Shown: positions 1 to 28,375 of the stretch, piece by piece
Position numbering within the stretch: position 1 is the stretch's first letter
Layout: every line of letters starts with the position of its first letter
Source: Promethearchaeota archaeon Loki_b31
Lineage (GTDB): Archaea > Asgardarchaeota > Lokiarchaeia > Sigyniarchaeales > SOKP01
Direction of reading: 5' to 3'
Assembly: GCA_005222975.1 (NCBI GenBank)
Contig: NJBI01000033.1
Location: 1 to 40,377, forward strand
Length of the DNA: 40,377 bases
Program-made: the position numbers and the translations under genes
The notes under the pieces: model-generated
Told to the model about the DNA's origin: nothing
The model's input: only the letters and a program-made list of their open reading frames with translations
Database searches by the model: none

Positions 1-308
1 TTTAAAATTATTTCAGGAATGTTTACACCAACATTATCCTTGGTCATTGGGCAGTATTCCATACATAATCCACAAGTCAAGCATTGCCAAATATTGTGTT
101 TCTCTAATACTTCTTCAGGGGGTAAAAATGTTAAATCAGTGATCAAATCCCTTGGATGAAATATATCTAGATAAGATACAGGACATACATTCACGCATCT
201 ATTACAATTAAAGCAATAATTTGCTGTTGCTCTAATCTTTTCAATAAACTCCCTTGAAATTATCTTTTTATCTTTTTTATGAATACCTTTATCAGTAGAT
301 TCGGTCAT
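1..308 (-). CDS. Partial 2x[4Fe-4S] protein, heterodisulfide reductase subunit C-like (runs off the window start)
   Basis: Not in the ORF track. Manual translation from the ATG at 308 gives MTESTDKG...NYCFNCNRCVNVCP...HPR...NIWQCLTCGLCMEYCP, two CxxCxxCxxxCP motifs with the HdrC-type IWxCxTC context. Confidence 0.75.
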   Translation of the reverse strand, partial: MTESTDKGIHKKDKKIISREFIEKIRATANYCFNCNRCVNVCPVSYLDIFHPRDLITDLTFLPPEEVLEKHNIWQCLTCGLCMEYCPMTKDNVGVNIPEIIL

Positions 309-579: not shown

Positions 580-1284
580 TTGCTTCTATTGGAAATGGAT
601 TTAGCTAGATTCATACAAATTTATATCGTCCAAGGATTAATTGGATTGTTTTATATTTATATGTCTTACAAAGTTCTTAGAAGAGACAAGAAAAATCTTC
701 ACCTTGCTTTATGTGGATTTTATGTCTGTGTGGGCTTAGGAGTTTTAATAAATATAATTTATGCGTCTATTTTTGATGAAACTCTTGTACGTCTACTTCA
801 TTTTATGACTTATTTCTTATTTTGTTTTTGTCAGGTGTTCTTACTAATCTTTGTATTAATTCTTACTAAATCTGAGAATATTATTACTCTAAGAATCCAA
901 CTCATTTTAATAAGCTCTTTTGGTCTACTTTTATCGGTATTATGGTTTATCCCGAATGGAATTACTATTAATGAAACCACAAATTGGAAACCTGTATGGA
1001 GCTGGGAATTTTTAATTTATTCTTATATTGTCTGCACTCTGTTTACGTTTGGACCTTTAATATACTATTCGGGAAAGATTTATTTTAAATTTGAGACCAT
1101 GGAATTAAGAAAAAAATGGATATGTTTTATAATAGGTATAATGGCGTACTATTTTGTTTATTATGGAACTTCTCTATCAAATACCTTAAATGATTCGACA
1201 TTCAGACTGATATGGTCAATTATCTCTCTAATTGCCATTCCTACAACTTATTTAATTTATTACGGTGTAGGGCGGGAGTTATAA
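580..1284 (+). CDS. Stand-alone 7-TM membrane protein (HisKA_7TM/GPCR-clan-like), paralogue 1
   Basis: Seven hydrophobic segments with basic loops 1, 3 and 5. Shares FIPNG..IN..T.WKPVWSW, LSNTLN and LIYYGVGR with the next gene. TTG start, with an alternative ATG at codon 6. Confidence 0.7.
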   Translation: MLLLEMDLARFIQIYIVQGLIGLFYIYMSYKVLRRDKKNLHLALCGFYVCVGLGVLINIIYASIFDETLVRLLHFMTYFLFCFCQVFLLIFVLILTKSENIITLRIQLILISSFGLLLSVLWFIPNGITINETTNWKPVWSWEFLIYSYIVCTLFTFGPLIYYSGKIYFKFETMELRKKWICFIIGIMAYYFVYYGTSLSNTLNDSTFRLIWSIISLIAIPTTYLIYYGVGREL

Positions 1285-1496
1285 TAAGTAAATATAGCTC
1301 TGCGTTTGTTTACATTTAAAGTAAATATAAGGCAAATACAGTATTAGAAATGATTTAAATTATTACTAAAATCTATTATTTAAAATTTGAAATTAGTAGT
1401 GCTTAAGTTTTTAATACATTATTGAAATATATTATTAAAAAAAATATTGTATTTTTTTAAAAACTATAAAAGTTAATTAAACAGAAGTGTGAATCT

Positions 1497-2210
1497 ATGG
1501 TATTATATCAGTTAGATACAACTAGAATTATTCAAGTTTATATTCTTCAAGGCACTGTTGGATTTTTTTTTCTATTTTTAGCATATAGGATTCTTAAACG
1601 AGATACAAAACGATTAAATTTAATGTTAAGTTTAGGGTATATAACTGCTTCGATCGGAATATTCATAAATTTCATTTATGCCCCTCTTACTAATGAAGCA
1701 ATTGTTTTAGTACTATATTATATGACAATTTTTTTCATGTTTCTATTTGCTGCTTTTTTTTTGGTTTTTCTTTTAATTTTGCTAAAGTCGGAGAAGGTTT
1801 TTACTCCAAAAAAGCAATTGGTGTTAATTATCATATATGGCGTAGCCGAACTGTGCAGTTTTTTTATTCCGAACGGAGTTATCATTAATGCTAGTACAGA
1901 TTGGAAACCTGTTTGGAGCTGGTTTATGTTTATTTATTTTGTAACGGTAATCGTAAGTTTAGGAATGGCTCCATCTTTATACATTTCATCAAAAATTTAT
2001 CAACAATTTGATGATGACCAATTAAAGAGAAAATGGAAATTTTTCATCGTAGGAATATGCGGAATATACACCTTTGCTATAGGAACTTTACTTTCTAATA
2101 CATTAAACATTCAAACTTTCAGGACCATATGGAGCTTATTCGCATTTATCCTAGTAATAATATCACCGTTGCTTATTTATTATGGTGTAGGACGACAAAT
2201 AGAGAAATAA
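1497..2210 (+). CDS. Stand-alone 7-TM membrane protein, paralogue 2
   Basis: Colinear with 580..1284 over its full length, with seven TM segments and no cytoplasmic domain after TM7. Confidence 0.7.
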   Translation: MVLYQLDTTRIIQVYILQGTVGFFFLFLAYRILKRDTKRLNLMLSLGYITASIGIFINFIYAPLTNEAIVLVLYYMTIFFMFLFAAFFLVFLLILLKSEKVFTPKKQLVLIIIYGVAELCSFFIPNGVIINASTDWKPVWSWFMFIYFVTVIVSLGMAPSLYISSKIYQQFDDDQLKRKWKFFIVGICGIYTFAIGTLLSNTLNIQTFRTIWSLFAFILVIISPLLIYYGVGRQIEK

Positions 2211-2242
2211 GTATATTTTTATTTTATTTTTTTTATCTTAAA

Positions 2243-2256
2243 CTTGACTTTCAAAG
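2243..2256 (+). repeat. IS terminal inverted repeat (transposase 3' side)
   Basis: CTTGACTTTCAAAG is the exact reverse complement of 4357-4370. Confidence 0.9.
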
Positions 2257-2323
2257 TTAAATTCTATAATATGATCTTATGGCTTCTAATTAAAGAATTT
2301 TTTTTTTTTGCCACTACTTAAAA

Positions 2324-4039
2324 TTATTTTCCCTTAAATCGGTTCAAGTCTAAGATCTTGAACAATTTGCGTTGCAAGGGAGACATCTGGGTAAGAAGCA
2401 CATCGGGAGGGCCTTTATCATCATAATATAACCGAATTTCTTTTATATCTTCCAAGGCTTCAAAACAAATATCTTTAGAGTCAGGAATGCCAGCTAATTG
2501 TATCTTTCGATAGAGTAAATTGGAAAGAAGCAAGGCTAACACGCTAATGAACATATGCACTCTTATCATCTCATTTGTCCAGACGTACATAGGCATTACG
2601 CTGATCCTACCTCTTTTATTCAACTCCTTGAATTGCCGTTCCACGTCGATTTGCGCTCGATATGTCTTAACGATTTCCAAGGTACTCCATTCATTCCTGT
2701 TGGAAAAAATGATGGATTTCCCGAGATTCTTCAAATATTCTTCTCGAGCAGTCTCATCAATTCTCCACGTTAATTCTAATTCTGAACCATTGTGTATTCT
2801 TTCAATAGATATGACGATGATTGAGCGTAATTTCTTGGTTTTAAGAATGTCTCGCTCGATTTTGGTCACCACACTTTTAGGATCCTTCCATTGTGGCTTA
2901 GTATTCAACTGGACCTTGATAAATTCCTTCAATTTCAAAATTGCCTTATAAATACTCTCGTCAAGGTTATATTCCTGTAAGGCAAACGTATCTTCGTCAA
3001 AGGTTGCAATTAAAGTATTTTGTTTGCCCTTACCGAGATATGCCGTCGTTGTAGTTCGATACCCGAATACTTTTCGTCCGTTCTTTTTCGTCCATAATTC
3101 CTGGTAGTCGGATAATGGCACGTCCAAGATAGGTTTCGAGATATTCATTGAAGGGCGGATGCTACTCACGAAATGGATGTGTTTAGAATCCAAGAACTTA
3201 TATGCGTCCTTTGAATTATTTCCCTTGTCAAAGACTAACGTGATCTTGGGTAATTCGAGTCCGATGGTTTTAAAACGTCGTTCCATGAGGGTGAGCACCT
3301 GCTTGAAGTGTGTCACGTCGGGAACATTTCCTTCGTAGGTTTCGTGCATTACCGGCATGTTATACTCGTCTCGGGTCACCAATAAGGACATGGAAACCTG
3401 TCGCAGGTCATTTCTCTTTTTCTTGTTATGTCCCCGTTGAGCGATGGTGTTTTTCTTGTATTCTCGAATATAAGTAAAGAAATTAGTCGGATCAAACAAG
3501 AAACAATCCGATTTTAACCCGAACTCGGAATACAATTTCTTGCAGATTATTTCTTCGACTTGCCTTATAGTTTCCTGGTCTAAATATCCCATCTGGTTCA
3601 AAATGTTTTGCGTAGTCAAAGACTCCGGAATATCTGGAAAATATCGTGAGAGCGCCGTCTTATCAAACCATTTCTGGACTTGGCTCTTGGAATTCAACGC
3701 AACTGCGCGATTTATCGCGAGTAATGTGATATATTCCCCGACCGGAAAACCCTGTTCTCGTTTTATCGTACATTCGTTAGAAATTTCAATCAAATCGAGC
3801 TCTTTAGAAATTGAATATAGAGCATATACTAAACCAAATGCAAATTGTTGGGGTATAGGGGGCTTTTTAGAAAACCTCCGTTTTATTTCGGGAAGCATTT
3901 CGTTTATTTTATCCTTTCTGCCGATATTAATCTCCCAAACCCGCTTAGATTTTCCATTCTCGTAAACATTATGCCCTAAGCAAATATAGGTATATTTCCC
4001 ATATTTTGTCCTTACATTTTTTTCAAAAACAAATACCAT
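2324..4039 (-). CDS. IS1634-family DDE transposase
   Basis: 571 aa with FDPTNFFTY, RGHNKKKRNDLRQV, YEGNVPD, VFDKGNNS and Y..Q.DVERQFKELN...P..V.T...IRVH motifs typical of IS1634 transposases. Confidence 0.9.
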   Translation of the reverse strand: MVFVFEKNVRTKYGKYTYICLGHNVYENGKSKRVWEINIGRKDKINEMLPEIKRRFSKKPPIPQQFAFGLVYALYSISKELDLIEISNECTIKREQGFPVGEYITLLAINRAVALNSKSQVQKWFDKTALSRYFPDIPESLTTQNILNQMGYLDQETIRQVEEIICKKLYSEFGLKSDCFLFDPTNFFTYIREYKKNTIAQRGHNKKKRNDLRQVSMSLLVTRDEYNMPVMHETYEGNVPDVTHFKQVLTLMERRFKTIGLELPKITLVFDKGNNSKDAYKFLDSKHIHFVSSIRPSMNISKPILDVPLSDYQELWTKKNGRKVFGYRTTTTAYLGKGKQNTLIATFDEDTFALQEYNLDESIYKAILKLKEFIKVQLNTKPQWKDPKSVVTKIERDILKTKKLRSIIVISIERIHNGSELELTWRIDETAREEYLKNLGKSIIFSNRNEWSTLEIVKTYRAQIDVERQFKELNKRGRISVMPMYVWTNEMIRVHMFISVLALLLSNLLYRKIQLAGIPDSKDICFEALEDIKEIRLYYDDKGPPDVLLTQMSPLQRKLFKILDLNRFKGK

Positions 4040-4356
4040 ATATAATAATTGTTACTATTTATTTATATAATTTTTGGTATCATTAATGTTAACCTTTTAA
4101 TATTTAGAAGAAAGATTGTACCATATACTTAGATTAATGGTTATATTGTTTTATTATTAATCCACGATGACATTTGGGAAAAAATGCTAAATAACAGATA
4201 AGAAATTAGTTAAGTTACTGATTGAGTTTTGTCGGAAGTTTGCGTTAACTACAATGATTTTAAATTTAGGTGTAAAAACTTGTTAAAATGGGACAATCAT
4301 TTAAAATCCAGACAAAATTTATTTGAAAGGAAAAATAAAAACTAGTGATCTTATAT

Positions 4357-4370
4357 CTTTGAAAGTCAAG
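4357..4370 (-). repeat. IS terminal inverted repeat (transposase 5' side)
   Basis: CTTTGAAAGTCAAG is the exact reverse complement of 2243-2256. Confidence 0.9.
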
Positions 4371-4461
4371 AATTAGCATAAAAATAAATAAAAAAAATAA
4401 GATTTATAATTTAATTTTAGAGATTGTTAATTAATAAAAAAATATTAAAAATTTAGTAAAT

Positions 4462-5406
4462 ATGACGATAGATAAGCGCGAAATAAATGAATTTAAACTA
4501 GTTATCGCTGGTTTAGACAATGCCGGAAAAAGTAGTGCGTTAATTGCTTTAAGAAAAAAATATAACTTTTACGAACGGGTAAAAAATCTAAAGCCTACAA
4601 TAAAAATAGATTATAGTTCTTTTAAATTCCTAGAAACCTATCGAATTAATCTCTGGGATATGGGTGGCCAGAAGAAATTCAGAAAAATATACATAAGTAA
4701 TCCCATATATTTTACTGAAACAAATTATATTTATTATCTTATAGATATTCAAGATGAAATCAAATTCGAGAAATCTGTAAAATATCTTCATGATTTATTA
4801 AATATTTATAGAGATTTGGATTATTCCAACGAAGTCATAATATGTTTCAATAAATATGATCCAAAGTTTAAATACAGTGAAGATTTTTTCGATCGAGCAG
4901 AAATGATTAAAAATTTAATTTTATCCCAAAATAAAGATATGAAATTTAAATTCTTTGACACATCTTACTACGACATTTCATCAATTTCGAAAGCAATTTC
5001 TTATTCTTTGGATAAATTATTAAATTTAGAAGTAATTGATATAGGATTAAGTAAAATTGTTAATCAGTTTAGTTGTAGTTATGCAATTTTATACACCGCA
5101 TCAGGACTTATCATATCTGATCATTACATGGATGTTATGGATATAAGAGCTTTTGAAGAGAAAATTAGTAGTAGAATTAACGAAGATCTTGAATTTTTTC
5201 AGAGATTAAAAGACGAAGATGTTAAAATAGACGATAGAGTAGCATTATCCGAGGATAGAACGGAATATGTAAAAAGGTATTCAATAATCTCTGGTAATAT
5301 AGAAAATATATTTTATATAGGAATAAGTGCTCCAACAAGTAAAATTAATGAAATCAAGATAGAATTAGAAAAATTTCGTAAGATCCTACTATCTGCTTTC
5401 ATGTAG
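4462..5406 (+). CDS. Arf/Rag-like small GTPase with C-terminal roadblock/longin-like domain
   Basis: G1 GLDNAGKS, G2 PT, G3 WDMGGQ, G4 NKYD, G5 TS, followed by a ~125-aa extension containing YAILYTASGLIISD (roadblock-like beta hairpin). Confidence 0.8.
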   Translation: MTIDKREINEFKLVIAGLDNAGKSSALIALRKKYNFYERVKNLKPTIKIDYSSFKFLETYRINLWDMGGQKKFRKIYISNPIYFTETNYIYYLIDIQDEIKFEKSVKYLHDLLNIYRDLDYSNEVIICFNKYDPKFKYSEDFFDRAEMIKNLILSQNKDMKFKFFDTSYYDISSISKAISYSLDKLLNLEVIDIGLSKIVNQFSCSYAILYTASGLIISDHYMDVMDIRAFEEKISSRINEDLEFFQRLKDEDVKIDDRVALSEDRTEYVKRYSIISGNIENIFYIGISAPTSKINEIKIELEKFRKILLSAFM

Positions 5407-5489
5407 TTTAAAAGAAGATATTATAACTTTATCTTATTTCAAATAAAACCTTTTTTTACTCCTTTTTAATTTGTAATTTATTAGAGTTG

Positions 5490-5553
5490 TAGAATGATAG
5501 AGCGGCAGCCCGTACAGTTATTATTAGACATTCAAATCTCCCCTCTATTCCTA
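5490..5553. other. Possible structured RNA element in the GTPase-panB intergenic region
   Basis: GC-enriched island. ATAGAGCGG (5497-5505) pairs with CCCCTCTAT (5540-5548) at 8 of 9 positions, and a T-run follows. Confidence 0.3.
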
Positions 5554-5627
5554 ATTTTTTTATACTTTCTAATTAAATGCTTATAAATAAACAAAACATT
5601 TTTCTAAAGTATGGGGTTACTTCATAT

Positions 5628-6515
5628 ATGGCGCTACAAAAAATAACTGCTAAAAAAATAATTGAAAAAAAAAAAAGCGGGGAAAAAATAGTAACTATTA
5701 CATCATATGATTATTCATTTGCCAAAATCGTTGATGATTGCGGAATTGATTTAATTCTCGTAGGCGATTCTCTTTCCATGGTAGTGCTTGGGTATAAGAA
5801 CACATTATCAGTTACGATGGACGAGATGATTCACCATACTAAAGCAGTGGCACGTGGAGTTTCGAATGCTATGATAGTTGCGGATATGCCTTTTTTATCG
5901 TACAAGATTGATATTATAAGAGCTGTGAAAAACGCTGGAAGGTTTATTCAAGAAGGTGGCGCTGAAGCCGTAAAAGTTGAGGGCGGGACAAAGATATGTC
6001 CTACGATAAAAGCAATTATTGATGCAGATATACAAGTGATGGGGCATATTGGGCTTACGCCTCAAGCTATATATGAATTTGGCGGTTTCCTAGTTCAAGG
6101 AAAAACAGTAGAAGCCGCAAAAAAGTTAATAATTGATGCTAAAAATTTAGAAAAAACGGGTGTTTTTTCTATAGTGTTAGAAAGCATTCCTTGGCAAATT
6201 GCCAAATTAATAACAAAAACTGTGAATATCCCTACTATTGGTATTGGTGCGGGGTCTTATTGTGATGGTCAAATCTTAGTTATAAATGATATGTTAGGGC
6301 TTTTTACTGACTTTAAGCCAAAATTTCTCAAATATTTTGCTGATATTGGAAGCTCAGTCCGAAGTGCTTTAGAAAGTTATAAAAATGAGGTAGAAAAGGG
6401 ATTATACCCCGATAAAGAACATTCTTACGACTTTCCATATCAAGACTTGGATGAGATTAATAAATGGTTTGAAAGCGTTGAAATCGAGGAAGAATCTAAT
6501 AAAATACAGGAATAA
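5628..6515 (+). CDS. panB: 3-methyl-2-oxobutanoate hydroxymethyltransferase
   Basis: TSYDY, LVGDSL, DMPFLSY, VKVEGG, MGHIGLTPQ and IGIGAG..CDGQILV..D motifs. Likely start is MALQKIT at 5628 rather than 5577. Confidence 0.95.
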   Translation: MALQKITAKKIIEKKKSGEKIVTITSYDYSFAKIVDDCGIDLILVGDSLSMVVLGYKNTLSVTMDEMIHHTKAVARGVSNAMIVADMPFLSYKIDIIRAVKNAGRFIQEGGAEAVKVEGGTKICPTIKAIIDADIQVMGHIGLTPQAIYEFGGFLVQGKTVEAAKKLIIDAKNLEKTGVFSIVLESIPWQIAKLITKTVNIPTIGIGAGSYCDGQILVINDMLGLFTDFKPKFLKYFADIGSSVRSALESYKNEVEKGLYPDKEHSYDFPYQDLDEINKWFESVEIEEESNKIQE

Positions 6516-6753
6516 TTATTTAGTTTTTAGGTAAAGACCTAATTTTTTATGTTTAGAATAAAACATCTAATAAATCCTTATTCAGATCAATCTATTAACC
6601 AACACTAATTCTATAGTAAATTTAACTGAATATTTGAAATTTTTCCAAAAGTATAATTAATTAAATTTTTATTAATTATAATAATACACTGAAATTTGAT
6701 TAATGACAATAGGATAAAAAAATAATTATTAATTACAGTTATGGTAGACTGAT

Positions 6754-8517
6754 ATGGTTGAAGAGTATGATTATCTTTTTAAATCAATTGTGGTAGGAGA
6801 TGGTGGAGTTGGTAAAACTGCTTTAACTCTTCGATTTTCAAAGGGTTTCTTTACAGAAGATTACAAGATGACGATTGGAGTGGATTTCCATGTCAAAACA
6901 ATAGCAATAGAGACGGTGGAAGGGGTTATTAAGTGTAAACTTCAACTTTGGGACACAGGTGGTCAAGAACGTTTTAGTTCCATAAGACCAATGTATTATA
7001 GAGGTTCGTTAGGTACAGTATTAGTTTTTGATCTTACTAATTCTGCAAGTTTTGAACATTTACCTCAATGGATTGAAGAAGTTAGATCTAATATCAAAAC
7101 CGACATCCCTATATTACTTGTTGGGAATAAGAGTGATTTGATTGATCAAAGAGCAGTTTCAATTGAAGAAATTAGTAATTTTACAAGAGATTTTAACTTG
7201 TATTATATGGAGACTTCAGCTAAAACAGGTGATGGAGTTGGAGATTGTTTTTATATTCTTGCTTGTCTAATGATAGGACAAGGTGTACCTGAACAATTTA
7301 TCGCCAATGCAACTGTCTTTACACCAGGAGACATCCCCTCACCTCCTCCTAGCGAAACTCCTTCTGAACCTACAGACGCGTATTTAGCACCACCCGTTCC
7401 TGAGCCAATACAATCTTTTGAAACCGAACCTGAAATTGAATTTGAGGCCCCCCCCGTTCCCGAACCCACCTCCATAAAATCGACAGAACAAATGTCATCC
7501 TTCGAACCAGAACCAGAGGTTGAATATGAGGCCCCCCCCGTTCCCGAACCTGTTCCAACATTTGAACCTCAACCAGAACCAGAAATATCAATGCCCGAAC
7601 CTGAAATTGAATTTAAAACCCCTGATGAAATTTTGCTTCAAAAAGCTGAGAAATCAGAACCTGAAATACTTCCTTCAATATTTCCAGGATCCTCAACTGT
7701 TGAAAGTGAAGTTTATAAACCCCAAACAATACCATTTTCATCAAATATTCCAGTACCGGCAACTCCACCCAAGGAATTTCAAACAATTAAACCTGAAAAA
7801 TCGGAAGTAGGTTCTTCAACTGAGACACCATTTCGCGTAATTAAAAGAGAGGAACCACCCAAACCTAAACCTGCTTCTATGACATTTGAGCCTACTCCGG
7901 AACCAAAAGCAGAACCAACAAGCGTAACTCCACTTTTTCAAACCTCACTGACTCAACCCTCTTCATCAGAATCACTAATCGATTATATGCCTCAAACTAT
8001 TTTATCTAAAAAAGAAATGAAAAAACTTGCTAAAGAGAAAAAGAAACAAGAAAAAGAAAAGAAAAACCTCGAAGCTCGGGAAAAACAAGAAAAATTACTT
8101 GAGGATATGAAAAAATTAAAGAAAGGAAAGAAGGAAAAGCAAGAAAAACAAATTGAACATAAAACTTCAAAATCAATCCCTCCCACTCCTCCTTTAGACA
8201 CGACACCTGAAGCAAGTTCACTATTTCAAACACTCACTCAAAAATTTGAAGAAAATTCTTTTGATCAAAGTACTCCCTTCATACCATTTAGTGCAACCAA
8301 AAAATCTGAAGAAGAAGAAAAATCTAAACTGAGAATAATCCCTAATGTTGCGGATATTGAAAGCGAACCTAGTAAGTTTACAGCAATTACTTCCACCCAA
8401 ACTGTTCAAGAAGATAAAAAAGAGCCAAAATCTAAAGATCTCTTAGTTTGTGAACAATGTGGGGCAATTTTATCTTCTGATTATGCGTTTTGTAATAAGT
8501 GTGGTAGTAAATTGTAA
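6754..8517 (+). CDS. Rab-like small GTPase with Pro/Glu-rich linker, Lys/Glu coiled coil and C-terminal C4 zinc ribbon
   Basis: YDYLFK..VVGDGGVGKT, TIGVDF, LQLWDTGGQERF, YYRG, NKSD and ETSAK motifs; C-terminus CEQC-x10-CNKCGSKL. Confidence 0.88.
   Translation: MVEEYDYLFKSIVVGDGGVGKTALTLRFSKGFFTEDYKMTIGVDFHVKTIAIETVEGVIKCKLQLWDTGGQERFSSIRPMYYRGSLGTVLVFDLTNSASFEHLPQWIEEVRSNIKTDIPILLVGNKSDLIDQRAVSIEEISNFTRDFNLYYMETSAKTGDGVGDCFYILACLMIGQGVPEQFIANATVFTPGDIPSPPPSETPSEPTDAYLAPPVPEPIQSFETEPEIEFEAPPVPEPTSIKSTEQMSSFEPEPEVEYEAPPVPEPVPTFEPQPEPEISMPEPEIEFKTPDEILLQKAEKSEPEILPSIFPGSSTVESEVYKPQTIPFSSNIPVPATPPKEFQTIKPEKSEVGSSTETPFRVIKREEPPKPKPASMTFEPTPEPKAEPTSVTPLFQTSLTQPSSSESLIDYMPQTILSKKEMKKLAKEKKKQEKEKKNLEAREKQEKLLEDMKKLKKGKKEKQEKQIEHKTSKSIPPTPPLDTTPEASSLFQTLTQKFEENSFDQSTPFIPFSATKKSEEEEKSKLRIIPNVADIESEPSKFTAITSTQTVQEDKKEPKSKDLLVCEQCGAILSSDYAFCNKCGSKL
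7387..7614 (+). repeat. Intragenic repeats encoding EPE(I/V)E(F/Y)EAPPVPEP units
   Basis: 24-bp identical repeat TGAGGCCCCCCCCGTTCCCGAACC at 7443-7466 and 7527-7550; 20-bp identical repeat CCGAACCTGAAATTGAATTT at 7424-7443 and 7595-7614; APPVPEP occurs three times. Confidence 0.85.
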
Positions 8518-27358: not shown

Positions 27359-28375
27359 TTACACATCCTCCATTACTATAAACTTTTTTATTATTTGTAA
27401 AGCAAGCATTTTGAAAGCATCATTTATATTTTCTCCAGTTTTAGCAGATGTTTCTATGTACGATAACTTTAATTCTTGCGCTAGTGATTCCCCCTCTTCA
27501 GTAGAAACCACTCTATCATTTTCTAAATCTATTTTATTTCCTACTAAAATAAGCGAAATGTTAGGAGACACCTTCCTAATTTCATTGTACCAATTCTTGT
27601 TGACATTTTCAAAAGATATTCGATTTGTTACATCATAAACTAAAATTCCTGCTTCTGCATTAGCCAAGTACATTTGTCTAACGCGTTTAAATTGAACTTG
27701 CCCTGCTAAATCCCATATTATAAACCTCACACTACTTTCAAGCCCTTCAAATGAACATTTCTTTTTCATAATTGAAGTACCTATCGTAGATTTATAATCA
27801 GTGGCAAAACTATTTTCAACATATCTGTGTACCATGCTTGTTTTACCAACTGCGCCATCTCCACCAAGGATTAATTTAAAAGCGTATTCTCCAGATTTTA
27901 TATTAATTTTTTGAAGTTTATCCACTTTTCGTTGGATATGTTTTATATCTTGTTCAGAAATTAACTTTGGAATAACGGGACTTACGGTTCTTCCGTCGAA
28001 AATTCGGGCAATCTTTTCAGATGCTAAATAAGCGTAAGGAAAAACGGGATCTACGCCCGCGATTGCATCTAAAACCGTAACAAGAATAGCTTCAGGTCCA
28101 GCTTCACAAAAAATGAATCTATAATCTTCAGTATCAAAAGTTCCCGTTCCAAAGGATCCTGAACTGAATTCTTCGGTAATTCTAGTTAATACGGGTTCTA
28201 CTAAAGCGCTTACACCACTAATAATTTCTTCATCTAGAGATTTTTCTGAAGAACCTATTAAAGAATCCATAACCAACCCGTCTCTATTTACCACTAAAAC
28301 TGCGATTAATTCATTACCAAGGCTTTGTTTATACCATTGGAGCAATGCTGCTAACTTTTTTGTATCAACTGACAA
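27359..28375 (-). CDS. Roadblock/LC7-domain fused Rab-like small GTPase
   Basis: N-terminal AVLVVNRDGLVM...AGPEAILVTV roadblock domain; C-terminal GDGAVGKT, STIG, WDLAGQ, NKID and ETSAKTG motifs. TTG start. Confidence 0.88.
   Translation of the reverse strand: MSVDTKKLAALLQWYKQSLGNELIAVLVVNRDGLVMDSLIGSSEKSLDEEIISGVSALVEPVLTRITEEFSSGSFGTGTFDTEDYRFIFCEAGPEAILVTVLDAIAGVDPVFPYAYLASEKIARIFDGRTVSPVIPKLISEQDIKHIQRKVDKLQKINIKSGEYAFKLILGGDGAVGKTSMVHRYVENSFATDYKSTIGTSIMKKKCSFEGLESSVRFIIWDLAGQVQFKRVRQMYLANAEAGILVYDVTNRISFENVNKNWYNEIRKVSPNISLILVGNKIDLENDRVVSTEEGESLAQELKLSYIETSAKTGENINDAFKMLALQIIKKFIVMEDV

Follow-up and report, generated by a model that had tools for sequence, protein, structure and literature searches.

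We analysed a stretch of 40,377 nt from Promethearchaeota archaeon Loki_b31 (assembly GCA_005222975.1, contig NJBI01000033.1, here C84), referred to below in its whole length as the window, in which two genes for seven-transmembrane-helix (7-TM) proteins, 7TMa and 7TMb, are followed by an insertion sequence (IS) and then by a co-oriented gene for a Rag/Arf-like small GTPase. Our analysis indicates that the two genes are probably intact tandem paralogues of a stand-alone, receptor-like 7-TM family, and that the GTPase gene came to lie next to them through a join at the site of the IS rather than as part of a functional module. The origin of signalling by G-protein-coupled receptors (GPCRs) is an open question, and had an Asgard archaeon carried a gene pair of receptor and GTPase, that origin would have become directly testable. 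With the pairing in the window being an accident of a mobile element, a false lead is removed, and a sizeable unannotated family of stand-alone GPCR-fold proteins (449 cluster representatives) with an unusually conserved cytoplasmic face is documented. The host genome bin is of the Lokiarchaeia type of Asgard archaea, with a size of 3.52 Mb, a completeness of 92% and a contamination of 5.98%.

Both 7-TM reading frames are real. The two proteins align over their full length with 45% identity (E 2e-63), and 7TMa has every invariant residue of the family in an alignment of 39 homologues, on which all conservation and motif counts for the family are based. An AlphaFold2 (AF2) model of 7TMb, built on the same homologues, has a mean pLDDT (predicted local distance difference test) value of 91.7 and contains seven long helices (residues 8-35, 39-61, 67-97, 104-123, 142-170, 174-203 and 206-231). 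Lysine plus arginine counts are 4, 4 and 5 in intracellular loops (ICLs) 1, 2 and 3 and 2 in the C-terminal tail, against 0, 1 and 1 in extracellular loops (ECLs) 1, 2 and 3, and because the basic residues concentrate in the ICLs and the tail, the positive-inside rule predicts an outer N terminus and an inner C terminus (N-out/C-in). The loops are the best-conserved parts of the family. On the cytoplasmic side there are conserved motifs after TM1 (LKRDxKRLN), after TM3 (KSEK..KQ) and after TM5 (FEDExLKKKWK), and TM7 ends in YYGVG; on the outer side the second loop, between TM4 and TM5, carries a conserved hairpin (PNG..IN.ST.WKPVWS). G127, W136 and P138 are invariant. No conserved charged residue and no conserved His, Asp or Glu lies in the membrane core, the conserved residues being gathered at both membrane faces.

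The chains of both proteins stop 6 residues past TM7. No fused domain was found among the 120 best of 283 homologues from a first search covering lengths of 130-415 aa, which are about 237 aa long or shorter fragments, or among the 150 best of 449 cluster representatives from an exhaustive profile search, nearly all of which have about 230-250 aa or are fragments; a search of longer proteins found no longer, fused forms either, which is weak evidence. By the criterion used for microbial rhodopsins, the retinal-binding Lys of TM7 is absent from both 7TMa and 7TMb, and a Lys in the TM7 core occurs in 3 of the 39 homologues and is not conserved. The description given by an earlier, sequence-only reading therefore stands in most respects: it had proposed two paralogues with seven helices and no effector, N-out/C-in topology with basic inner loops, a long conserved second outer loop, an end shortly after TM7 and no retinal-binding Lys. 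Its comparison of SPLLIYY in TM7 with the NPxxY motif of GPCRs has to be given up, as the Pro is not conserved and there is no Asn. The motifs E/DRY, CWxP and NPxxY each occur in 0 of 39 homologues. Neither 7TMa nor 7TMb matches any Pfam family, no Pfam GPCR family matches them or any of the 39 homologues, and the family profile found nothing among the PDB sequences (best E 1.5).

At the level of structure, the 50 best PDB matches of the 7TMb model by VIA-align are all GPCRs, GPCR-like proteins or de novo designs of the GPCR fold (Z 13.5-16.8, root-mean-square deviation (rmsd) 3.3-4.6 Å, 205-230 aligned residues), and the Foldseek list agrees with it, with E values of only about 1e-2. The ESM Atlas clusters that come closest without belonging to the family contain HisKA_7TM (PF16927) and match with TM-scores of 0.72-0.75, and one Atlas cluster of the family itself has automatically been named after this domain. 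Alignment of the family profile with 14 bona fide Asgard HisKA_7TM domains by hhalign gave a co-linear match from TM1 to TM6 (probability 91%, E 9.7e-7, 165 columns). The predicted structure shows that the 7-TM proteins adopt a GPCR-like seven-helix bundle in N-out/C-in orientation without an output domain, and the sensor domain HisKA_7TM of prokaryotes is remotely homologous to them. We conclude that the family is a divergent stand-alone branch of a HisKA_7TM-like, GPCR-fold sensor superfamily. Fold comparison, which the sequence-only reading had named as a check on its proposed relation to GPCRs, came out in its favour; its statement that HisKA_7TM-type domains are normally fused to an effector needs softening, as one of the nearest Atlas clusters, with 1,437 bacterial members of about 276 aa, consists of stand-alone proteins. 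Archaeal histidine-kinase 7-TM domains have been linked to the GPCR fold (PMC13581589). A study of structural clusters common to Asgard archaea and eukaryotes lists '7TM proteins' and GPCR-labelled clusters, from which it could not be told whether the present family is included (bioRxiv 10.64898/2026.10.28.762692). Our literature search found general mentions of this kind and no description of the family.

The GTPase gene is separated from this pair by an IS4-like DDE-transposase element, recognised by a transposase gene (DDE_Tnp_1, 29.5 bits against a cut-off of 23) bounded by perfect terminal inverted repeats of 14 bp (CTTGACTTTCAAAG, first copy at 2243-2256, partner at 4358-4371). The element has a GC content of 34-40%, against 23-27% in its flanks, and is present as a single copy, no second copy being found in the assembly. 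An IS-free allele of the left side (locus L085) shows 95% DNA identity to window positions 1164-2251; it is base-for-base identical to the window from 2150 to 2242 and diverges at 2243, which sets the left end of the IS at 2242/2243. Removal of 2243-4371 leaves 32 + 90 = 122 bp between 7TMb and the start codon of the GTPase, practically the 123 bp that had been counted before. This was not a simple IS insertion, because no target-site duplication is visible (the flanks ...TCTTAAA and AATTAGC... do not repeat) and the right flank is unlike the continuation of L085: to the right of the IS the window contains neither further L085 DNA nor a remnant of the helix-hairpin-helix/zinc-ribbon (HhH-ZnR) gene that L085 and all closer relatives carry downstream of the 7-TM genes.

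The IS lies exactly between two loci that have different neighbourhoods in related genomes, namely the 7-TM locus (oxidoreductase< 7TMa> 7TMb> HhH-ZnR>) and the GTPase locus (IlvE-like< GTPase> PanB> Ras-ZnR>), where arrowheads give the direction of each gene. Both genes expected at the junction, HhH-ZnR and IlvE-like, are missing. Only a paralogous HhH-ZnR copy, on contig C61, is present in the host genome, in which neither a second copy nor, at 92% completeness, an IlvE-like gene was found. Because two different, truncated ancestral neighbourhoods meet at the IS, it marks a synteny breakpoint. A quick IQ-TREE run places the window's 7TMb with sequences from metagenome contigs and from a different genus, and not with the pair of its own genus on C61. 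Given this grouping and the GC content and single copy of the IS, horizontal acquisition of the left 2.2 kb together with the IS is one possibility, and a chimeric contig joined at the IS is another. Either a deletion or rearrangement associated with the IS produced the join, or the assembly is chimeric at this point; in both cases the join is private to this contig.

The GTPase itself has a conserved setting of its own. It matches Gtr1_RagA with 72.1 bits (cut-off 22; profile positions 1-225 of 232), has intact G1, G3 and G4 motifs (GLDNAGKS, DMGG and NKYD), and consists of a G domain followed by a C-terminal domain of about 130 aa; the closest solved structure is LokiRagO (8yl2, E 9.5e-24, aligned to residues 38-257 of 8yl2). 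Judged by its sequence, the protein is a typical Lokiarchaeial Rag-like GTPase. The function of archaeal Rag-like GTPases is not known (PMC10933270). Orthologues were found in all 46 sampled genomes of the host's taxonomic family. Among 14 orthologue loci inspected, 10 have an IlvE-like class-IV aminotransferase gene upstream on the opposite strand together with PanB or another conserved gene downstream, 6 have the order GTPase> PanB> Ras-Zn-ribbon>, and a 7-TM gene lies upstream in 0 of the 14; the genes that follow further downstream are those of the window. The host genome has one copy of PanB. As PanB and the Ras-Zn-ribbon gene are conserved downstream partners of the GTPase, the gene order to the right of the IS is the native one. 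The arrangement IlvE-like< Rag-like GTPase> PanB> Ras-Zn-ribbon> is kept across several genera (window 4462-8517; L035-L046). Since eukaryotic Rags signal amino-acid supply, it is suggestive to find a Rag-type GTPase next to genes for branched-chain amino acids and pantothenate.

Linkage between the two gene families was followed through 49 other 7-TM loci on genome and metagenome contigs, and a canonical GTPase is the direct neighbour in 0 of them. A tblastn search with the window GTPase within 8 kb on either side of 23 7-TM loci gave nothing; by tblastn and phmmer, an Arf/Rag-like gene occurs within 6-8 kb in 0 of 43 genome loci, and a Ras-like gene is near, never adjacent, in 2 of the 43. 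Besides the 23 loci, twenty loci of more distant 7-TM paralogues have other contexts, only one of them with a Ras-like gene, five genes away. The host genome has six 7-TM paralogues, and the four outside the window have no GTPase neighbour. In its 3.52 Mb there are at least 62 genes of the Arf/Ras type, or about one gene in every 55, and by our arithmetic the chance that at least one of the six paralogues, each with two flanks, adjoins a GTPase gene is about 20%; with so many small-GTPase genes in the genome, a chance adjacency is unremarkable. The density of such genes is also illustrated within the window by a third small GTPase (Ras-type G domain in a 366-aa frame, 27389-27877, minus strand). 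The adjacency of the 7-TM genes and the Rag-like GTPase gene is accidental, a mobile-element join of unrelated loci, and this juxtaposition does not belong to the system.

In the genomes searched, the 7-TM family hardly occurs outside a single family of Lokiarchaeia-type Asgard archaea: members were found in 39 of the 40 genomes sampled from the host's taxonomic family, as against just 6 of about 160 genomes from elsewhere in the phylum. The clades of first genes and second genes of the tandem pairs separate in the quick tree, and the a/b duplication is therefore old. 7TMb falls into a clade with L030, L031, L033 and L010, and its second-gene type is the copy kept where only one gene is present. 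The main locus has the order EamA< c1> [optional oxidoreductase<] 7TMa> 7TMb> HhH-ZnR> Na/Ca-exchanger< SIR2< PIG-L< in 21 genomes, and the same order is found on metagenome contigs of the closest relatives, which are 70-77% identical and have the HhH-ZnR gene about 165 bp downstream. In most loci some 115-170 bp lie between 7TMb and the HhH-ZnR gene, which has the same strand; it was seen downstream of 7TMb in L085, L030, L032 and L034 and in 17 of 23 genome loci. At the other end, the oxidoreductase fragment of the window has 64% identity to residues 1-101 of a 920-aa protein of L030; this gene also lies upstream of the 7-TM genes, in divergent orientation, in L030, L031 and L033, and a related gene of about 415 aa is found upstream of them in L010, L012, L014 and L024.

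The HhH-ZnR protein (116-145 aa) has two HhH motifs and a C-terminal zinc ribbon of the form CPKCG...CxxC; of all downstream neighbours of 7TMb, its gene (L030:7343-7693, L085:1196-1456, host C61:46916-47251) is the most constant, and it has been lost from the window locus. Members of a paralogous 7-TM subfamily are encoded by the last gene of a co-directional cluster (host contig C64, L008:5436-9559; also L055-L063) with the order unknown protein (about 427 aa) > GNAT-containing protein (about 350 aa) > ThiF/E1-like protein (about 284 aa) > 7TM, which has gaps of 23-131 bp in the host and is conserved in about ten genomes.

The remaining conserved neighbour, c1, is a protein of about 200 aa (host C61:49572-50156, which is L007:11573-12157, minus strand) with orthologues in L011-L033. 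It starts with a P-loop-like LGLIGxxDSGKE and matches no Pfam family, GTPase families included. Its model (pLDDT 91.1) has a Ras-superfamily fold, with at least 500 Foldseek matches below 1e-3, the best to Rac1 (E 1.2e-9) and others to Rab proteins, and with a VIA-align Z of 15.4 and an rmsd of 2.6-3.0 Å over about 155 residues; language-model features of c1 match Ras as well. The nucleotide-binding motif GxxxxGK[ST] is present in 0 of 20 orthologues, and no DxxG or NKxD is positionally conserved in them. Because a Ras fold goes together with the lack of canonical motifs in the 20 orthologues, c1 is pseudoGTPase-like, and on the strength of the model it is a candidate archaeal pseudoGTPase. 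It shows no profile similarity to the window GTPase. A 187-aa reading frame upstream of the paralogue on contig C43 was considered as a relative of c1 and rejected (hhalign probability 0.4%). The gene is single copy and occurs in 38 of 40 genomes, against 39 of 40 for the 7-TM family in the same taxonomic family; neither was found in G077. It is linked to the 7-TM genes loosely: it lies upstream on their strand in about 25 of 27 main-type loci and is directly adjacent in about 14, and the spacing to 7TMa is about 500 bp or is filled by 1-2 inserted opposite-strand genes in about 11 loci. It is always divergently paired with the EamA transporter gene.

As the preferred reading has it, the 7-TM proteins would act as membrane sensors, in which the conserved outer hairpin and the helix bundle would receive a signal and the basic cytoplasmic face (LKRDxKRLN, KSEK...KQ, FEDExLKKKWK and YYGVG) would pass it to a separate soluble partner, with the conserved a/b pair possibly forming a heterodimer. 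Several points weigh against this reading. The PF16927 model does not match the window proteins and reaches, below threshold, 3 of the 39 family members (best E 0.28), and it has no match in the host genome although control genomes did give matches; hydrophobic composition may inflate profile comparisons such as that between the family and HisKA_7TM; helical bundles reach middling Z values by chance, yet the top 50 matches are all of one fold class; the only grounds for a sensor role are fold, topology, conserved loops and remote homology; and a real, recent IS-mediated juxtaposition of the 7-TM and GTPase genes could in principle have been selected. We consider it unlikely that the proteins are something other than receptors, namely small transporters, enzymes of the membrane or structural parts of it, that have no more in common with receptors than the widespread seven-helix arrangement. 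Such a role would fit the lack of an output domain and of an identified partner, the fact that similarity of fold shows no function, the clustering of the paralogous subfamily with GNAT and ThiF/E1-like enzyme genes, a hint that at least that branch may serve in metabolism or modification, and a weak Pfam noise of EccD-like and TctB-like matches. It fits poorly with conservation at both faces around a membrane core free of conserved charged, His, Asp or Glu residues, with 50 best PDB matches that include no transporter or enzyme fold, and with the remote profile match to a sensor domain.

Where a partner is sought among neighbouring genes, the sequence-only reading had named the adjacent Rag/Arf-like GTPase, on which the receptors would act in trans, like a guanine-nucleotide exchange factor, in a proto-GPCR/G-protein module. 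The GPCR-like fold and topology, a conserved basic face that resembles a partner-binding surface, co-orientation at 122 bp once the IS is removed and intact G motifs all speak for it, but the linkage is unique to this contig, the IS stands at a synteny break with both expected flanking genes missing, and the GTPase orthologue, present in all 46 family genomes, always lies elsewhere. To this are added T-rich runs after the 7TMb stop and an AT-rich leader of 90 bp before the GTPase, which suggest separate transcription units (weakly so in DNA of 75% AT), the lack of any G-alpha match (PF00503) over the cut-off in the host genome, and the report that Loki GTPase genes are generally not arranged with regulators (PMC10933270). 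With no conserved GTPase linkage in IS-free relatives, the proposal falls, and we regard such a module as extremely improbable. A partnership with neighbours of the ancestral locus, in which c1 would serve as cytoplasmic adaptor, the HhH-ZnR protein as DNA-binding output, or both, is distinctly unlikely. It can appeal to the Ras-superfamily fold of c1, to its position on the same strand and its phyletic range close to that of the 7-TM family, and to the short distance at which HhH-ZnR follows 7TMb in most loci. Against it, all these loci are orthologous within one taxonomic family, so that inherited synteny suffices; c1 stays with EamA and apart from the 7-TM genes in G138, could not be found in G144, where a 7-TM gene is retained, and is often set off from 7TMa by the gap or the opposite-strand genes described above; it lacks nucleotide-binding motifs; other 7-TM subfamilies have neither neighbour; and the window pair is intact despite the loss of its HhH-ZnR gene. 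A complex prediction for 7TMb with c1 (score 0.01) weighs on neither side. Functional coupling of c1 with the 7-TM proteins is improbable, and that Lokiarchaeial GPCR-fold proteins signal through c1, with the window Rag-like GTPase playing no part, seems very improbable. If it were true, the archaea most closely related to eukaryotes would have, in a prokaryotic 7-TM receptor and a transducer of small-G-protein fold, an analogue of the coupling of receptors to G proteins, of independent or ancestral origin. The c1 and HhH-ZnR proteins are concrete partner candidates for experiments. The reading that remains favoured is that of stand-alone receptor-like paralogues beside a GTPase gene that was joined to them at the IS.

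Table 1. Features at the left end of the window (positions as in the window).
Feature	Position	Strand	Evidence
Fe-S/CCG/pyridine-nucleotide oxidoreductase, 5' part (first ~101 codons)	3..308	-	Fer4_8/Fer4_17 matches; gene extends beyond contig start
7TMa, 234 aa, TTG start, stand-alone, 'first-gene' type	580..1284	+	Open reading frame; 45% identity to 7TMb; groups with relatives' first genes
7TMb, 237 aa, stand-alone, 'second-gene' type	1497..2210	+	Open reading frame; AF2 model; GPCR-like fold; homologues
Insertion sequence, about 2.13 kb	2243..4371	-	DDE_Tnp_1; 14-bp perfect terminal inverted repeats; IS-free allele
DDE transposase gene, 571 aa	2324..4039	-	DDE_Tnp_1, 7.5e-07
Rag/Arf-like small GTPase, 314 aa	4462..5406	+	Gtr1_RagA 6e-20, Arf 7e-20
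PanB	5577..6515	+	Pantoate_transf 1e-111
Ras-like GTPase with C-terminal Zn ribbon	6754..8517	+	Ras 7e-53

Among known systems, the 7-TM family is close to the HisKA_7TM sensor domain, with which it shares seven helices of similar length, TM-scores of 0.72-0.75 and a co-linear profile match. It differs from that domain in remaining below the threshold of the Pfam model, in lacking a kinase, GGDEF/EAL, HD or other output domain, and in having its own hairpin in outer loop 2, its basic cytoplasmic motifs and a conserved tandem a/b pair. Bona fide HisKA_7TM genes of other Asgard families have frames of 375-1144 aa, and none was found in 15 genomes of the taxonomic family of Loki_b31. With eukaryotic GPCRs (adhesion, class A, class C and Frizzled) the family has in common the 7-TM bundle, the order of helices and the N-out/C-in topology, whereas the identity is 6-12%, the E/DRY, CWxP and NPxxY motifs and any Pfam GPCR match are absent, the host genome has no G-alpha above the cut-off, and there is no conserved linkage to a GTPase.

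For c1 the nearest parallels are the pG1 domain of p190RhoGAP and the G domain of AAGAB, which likewise combine a Ras-like fold with the lack of canonical G1, G3 and G4 motifs; the pseudoGTPase structures 5u4v and 9dds are among the c1 matches (Z about 11.5). Unlike them, c1 is a stand-alone archaeal protein without a Pfam family, and it occurs in one Lokiarchaeial family only. The window GTPase resembles Lokiarchaeial Rag-like GTPases (LokiRagO 8yl2 at E 9.5e-24, LokiRagM 8zla/9m28 at 4.3e-17) and eukaryotic RagA/Gtr1, also in its layout of a G domain followed by a C-terminal domain, and differs from them in its conserved place beside IlvE-like and PanB genes and not beside any membrane receptor.

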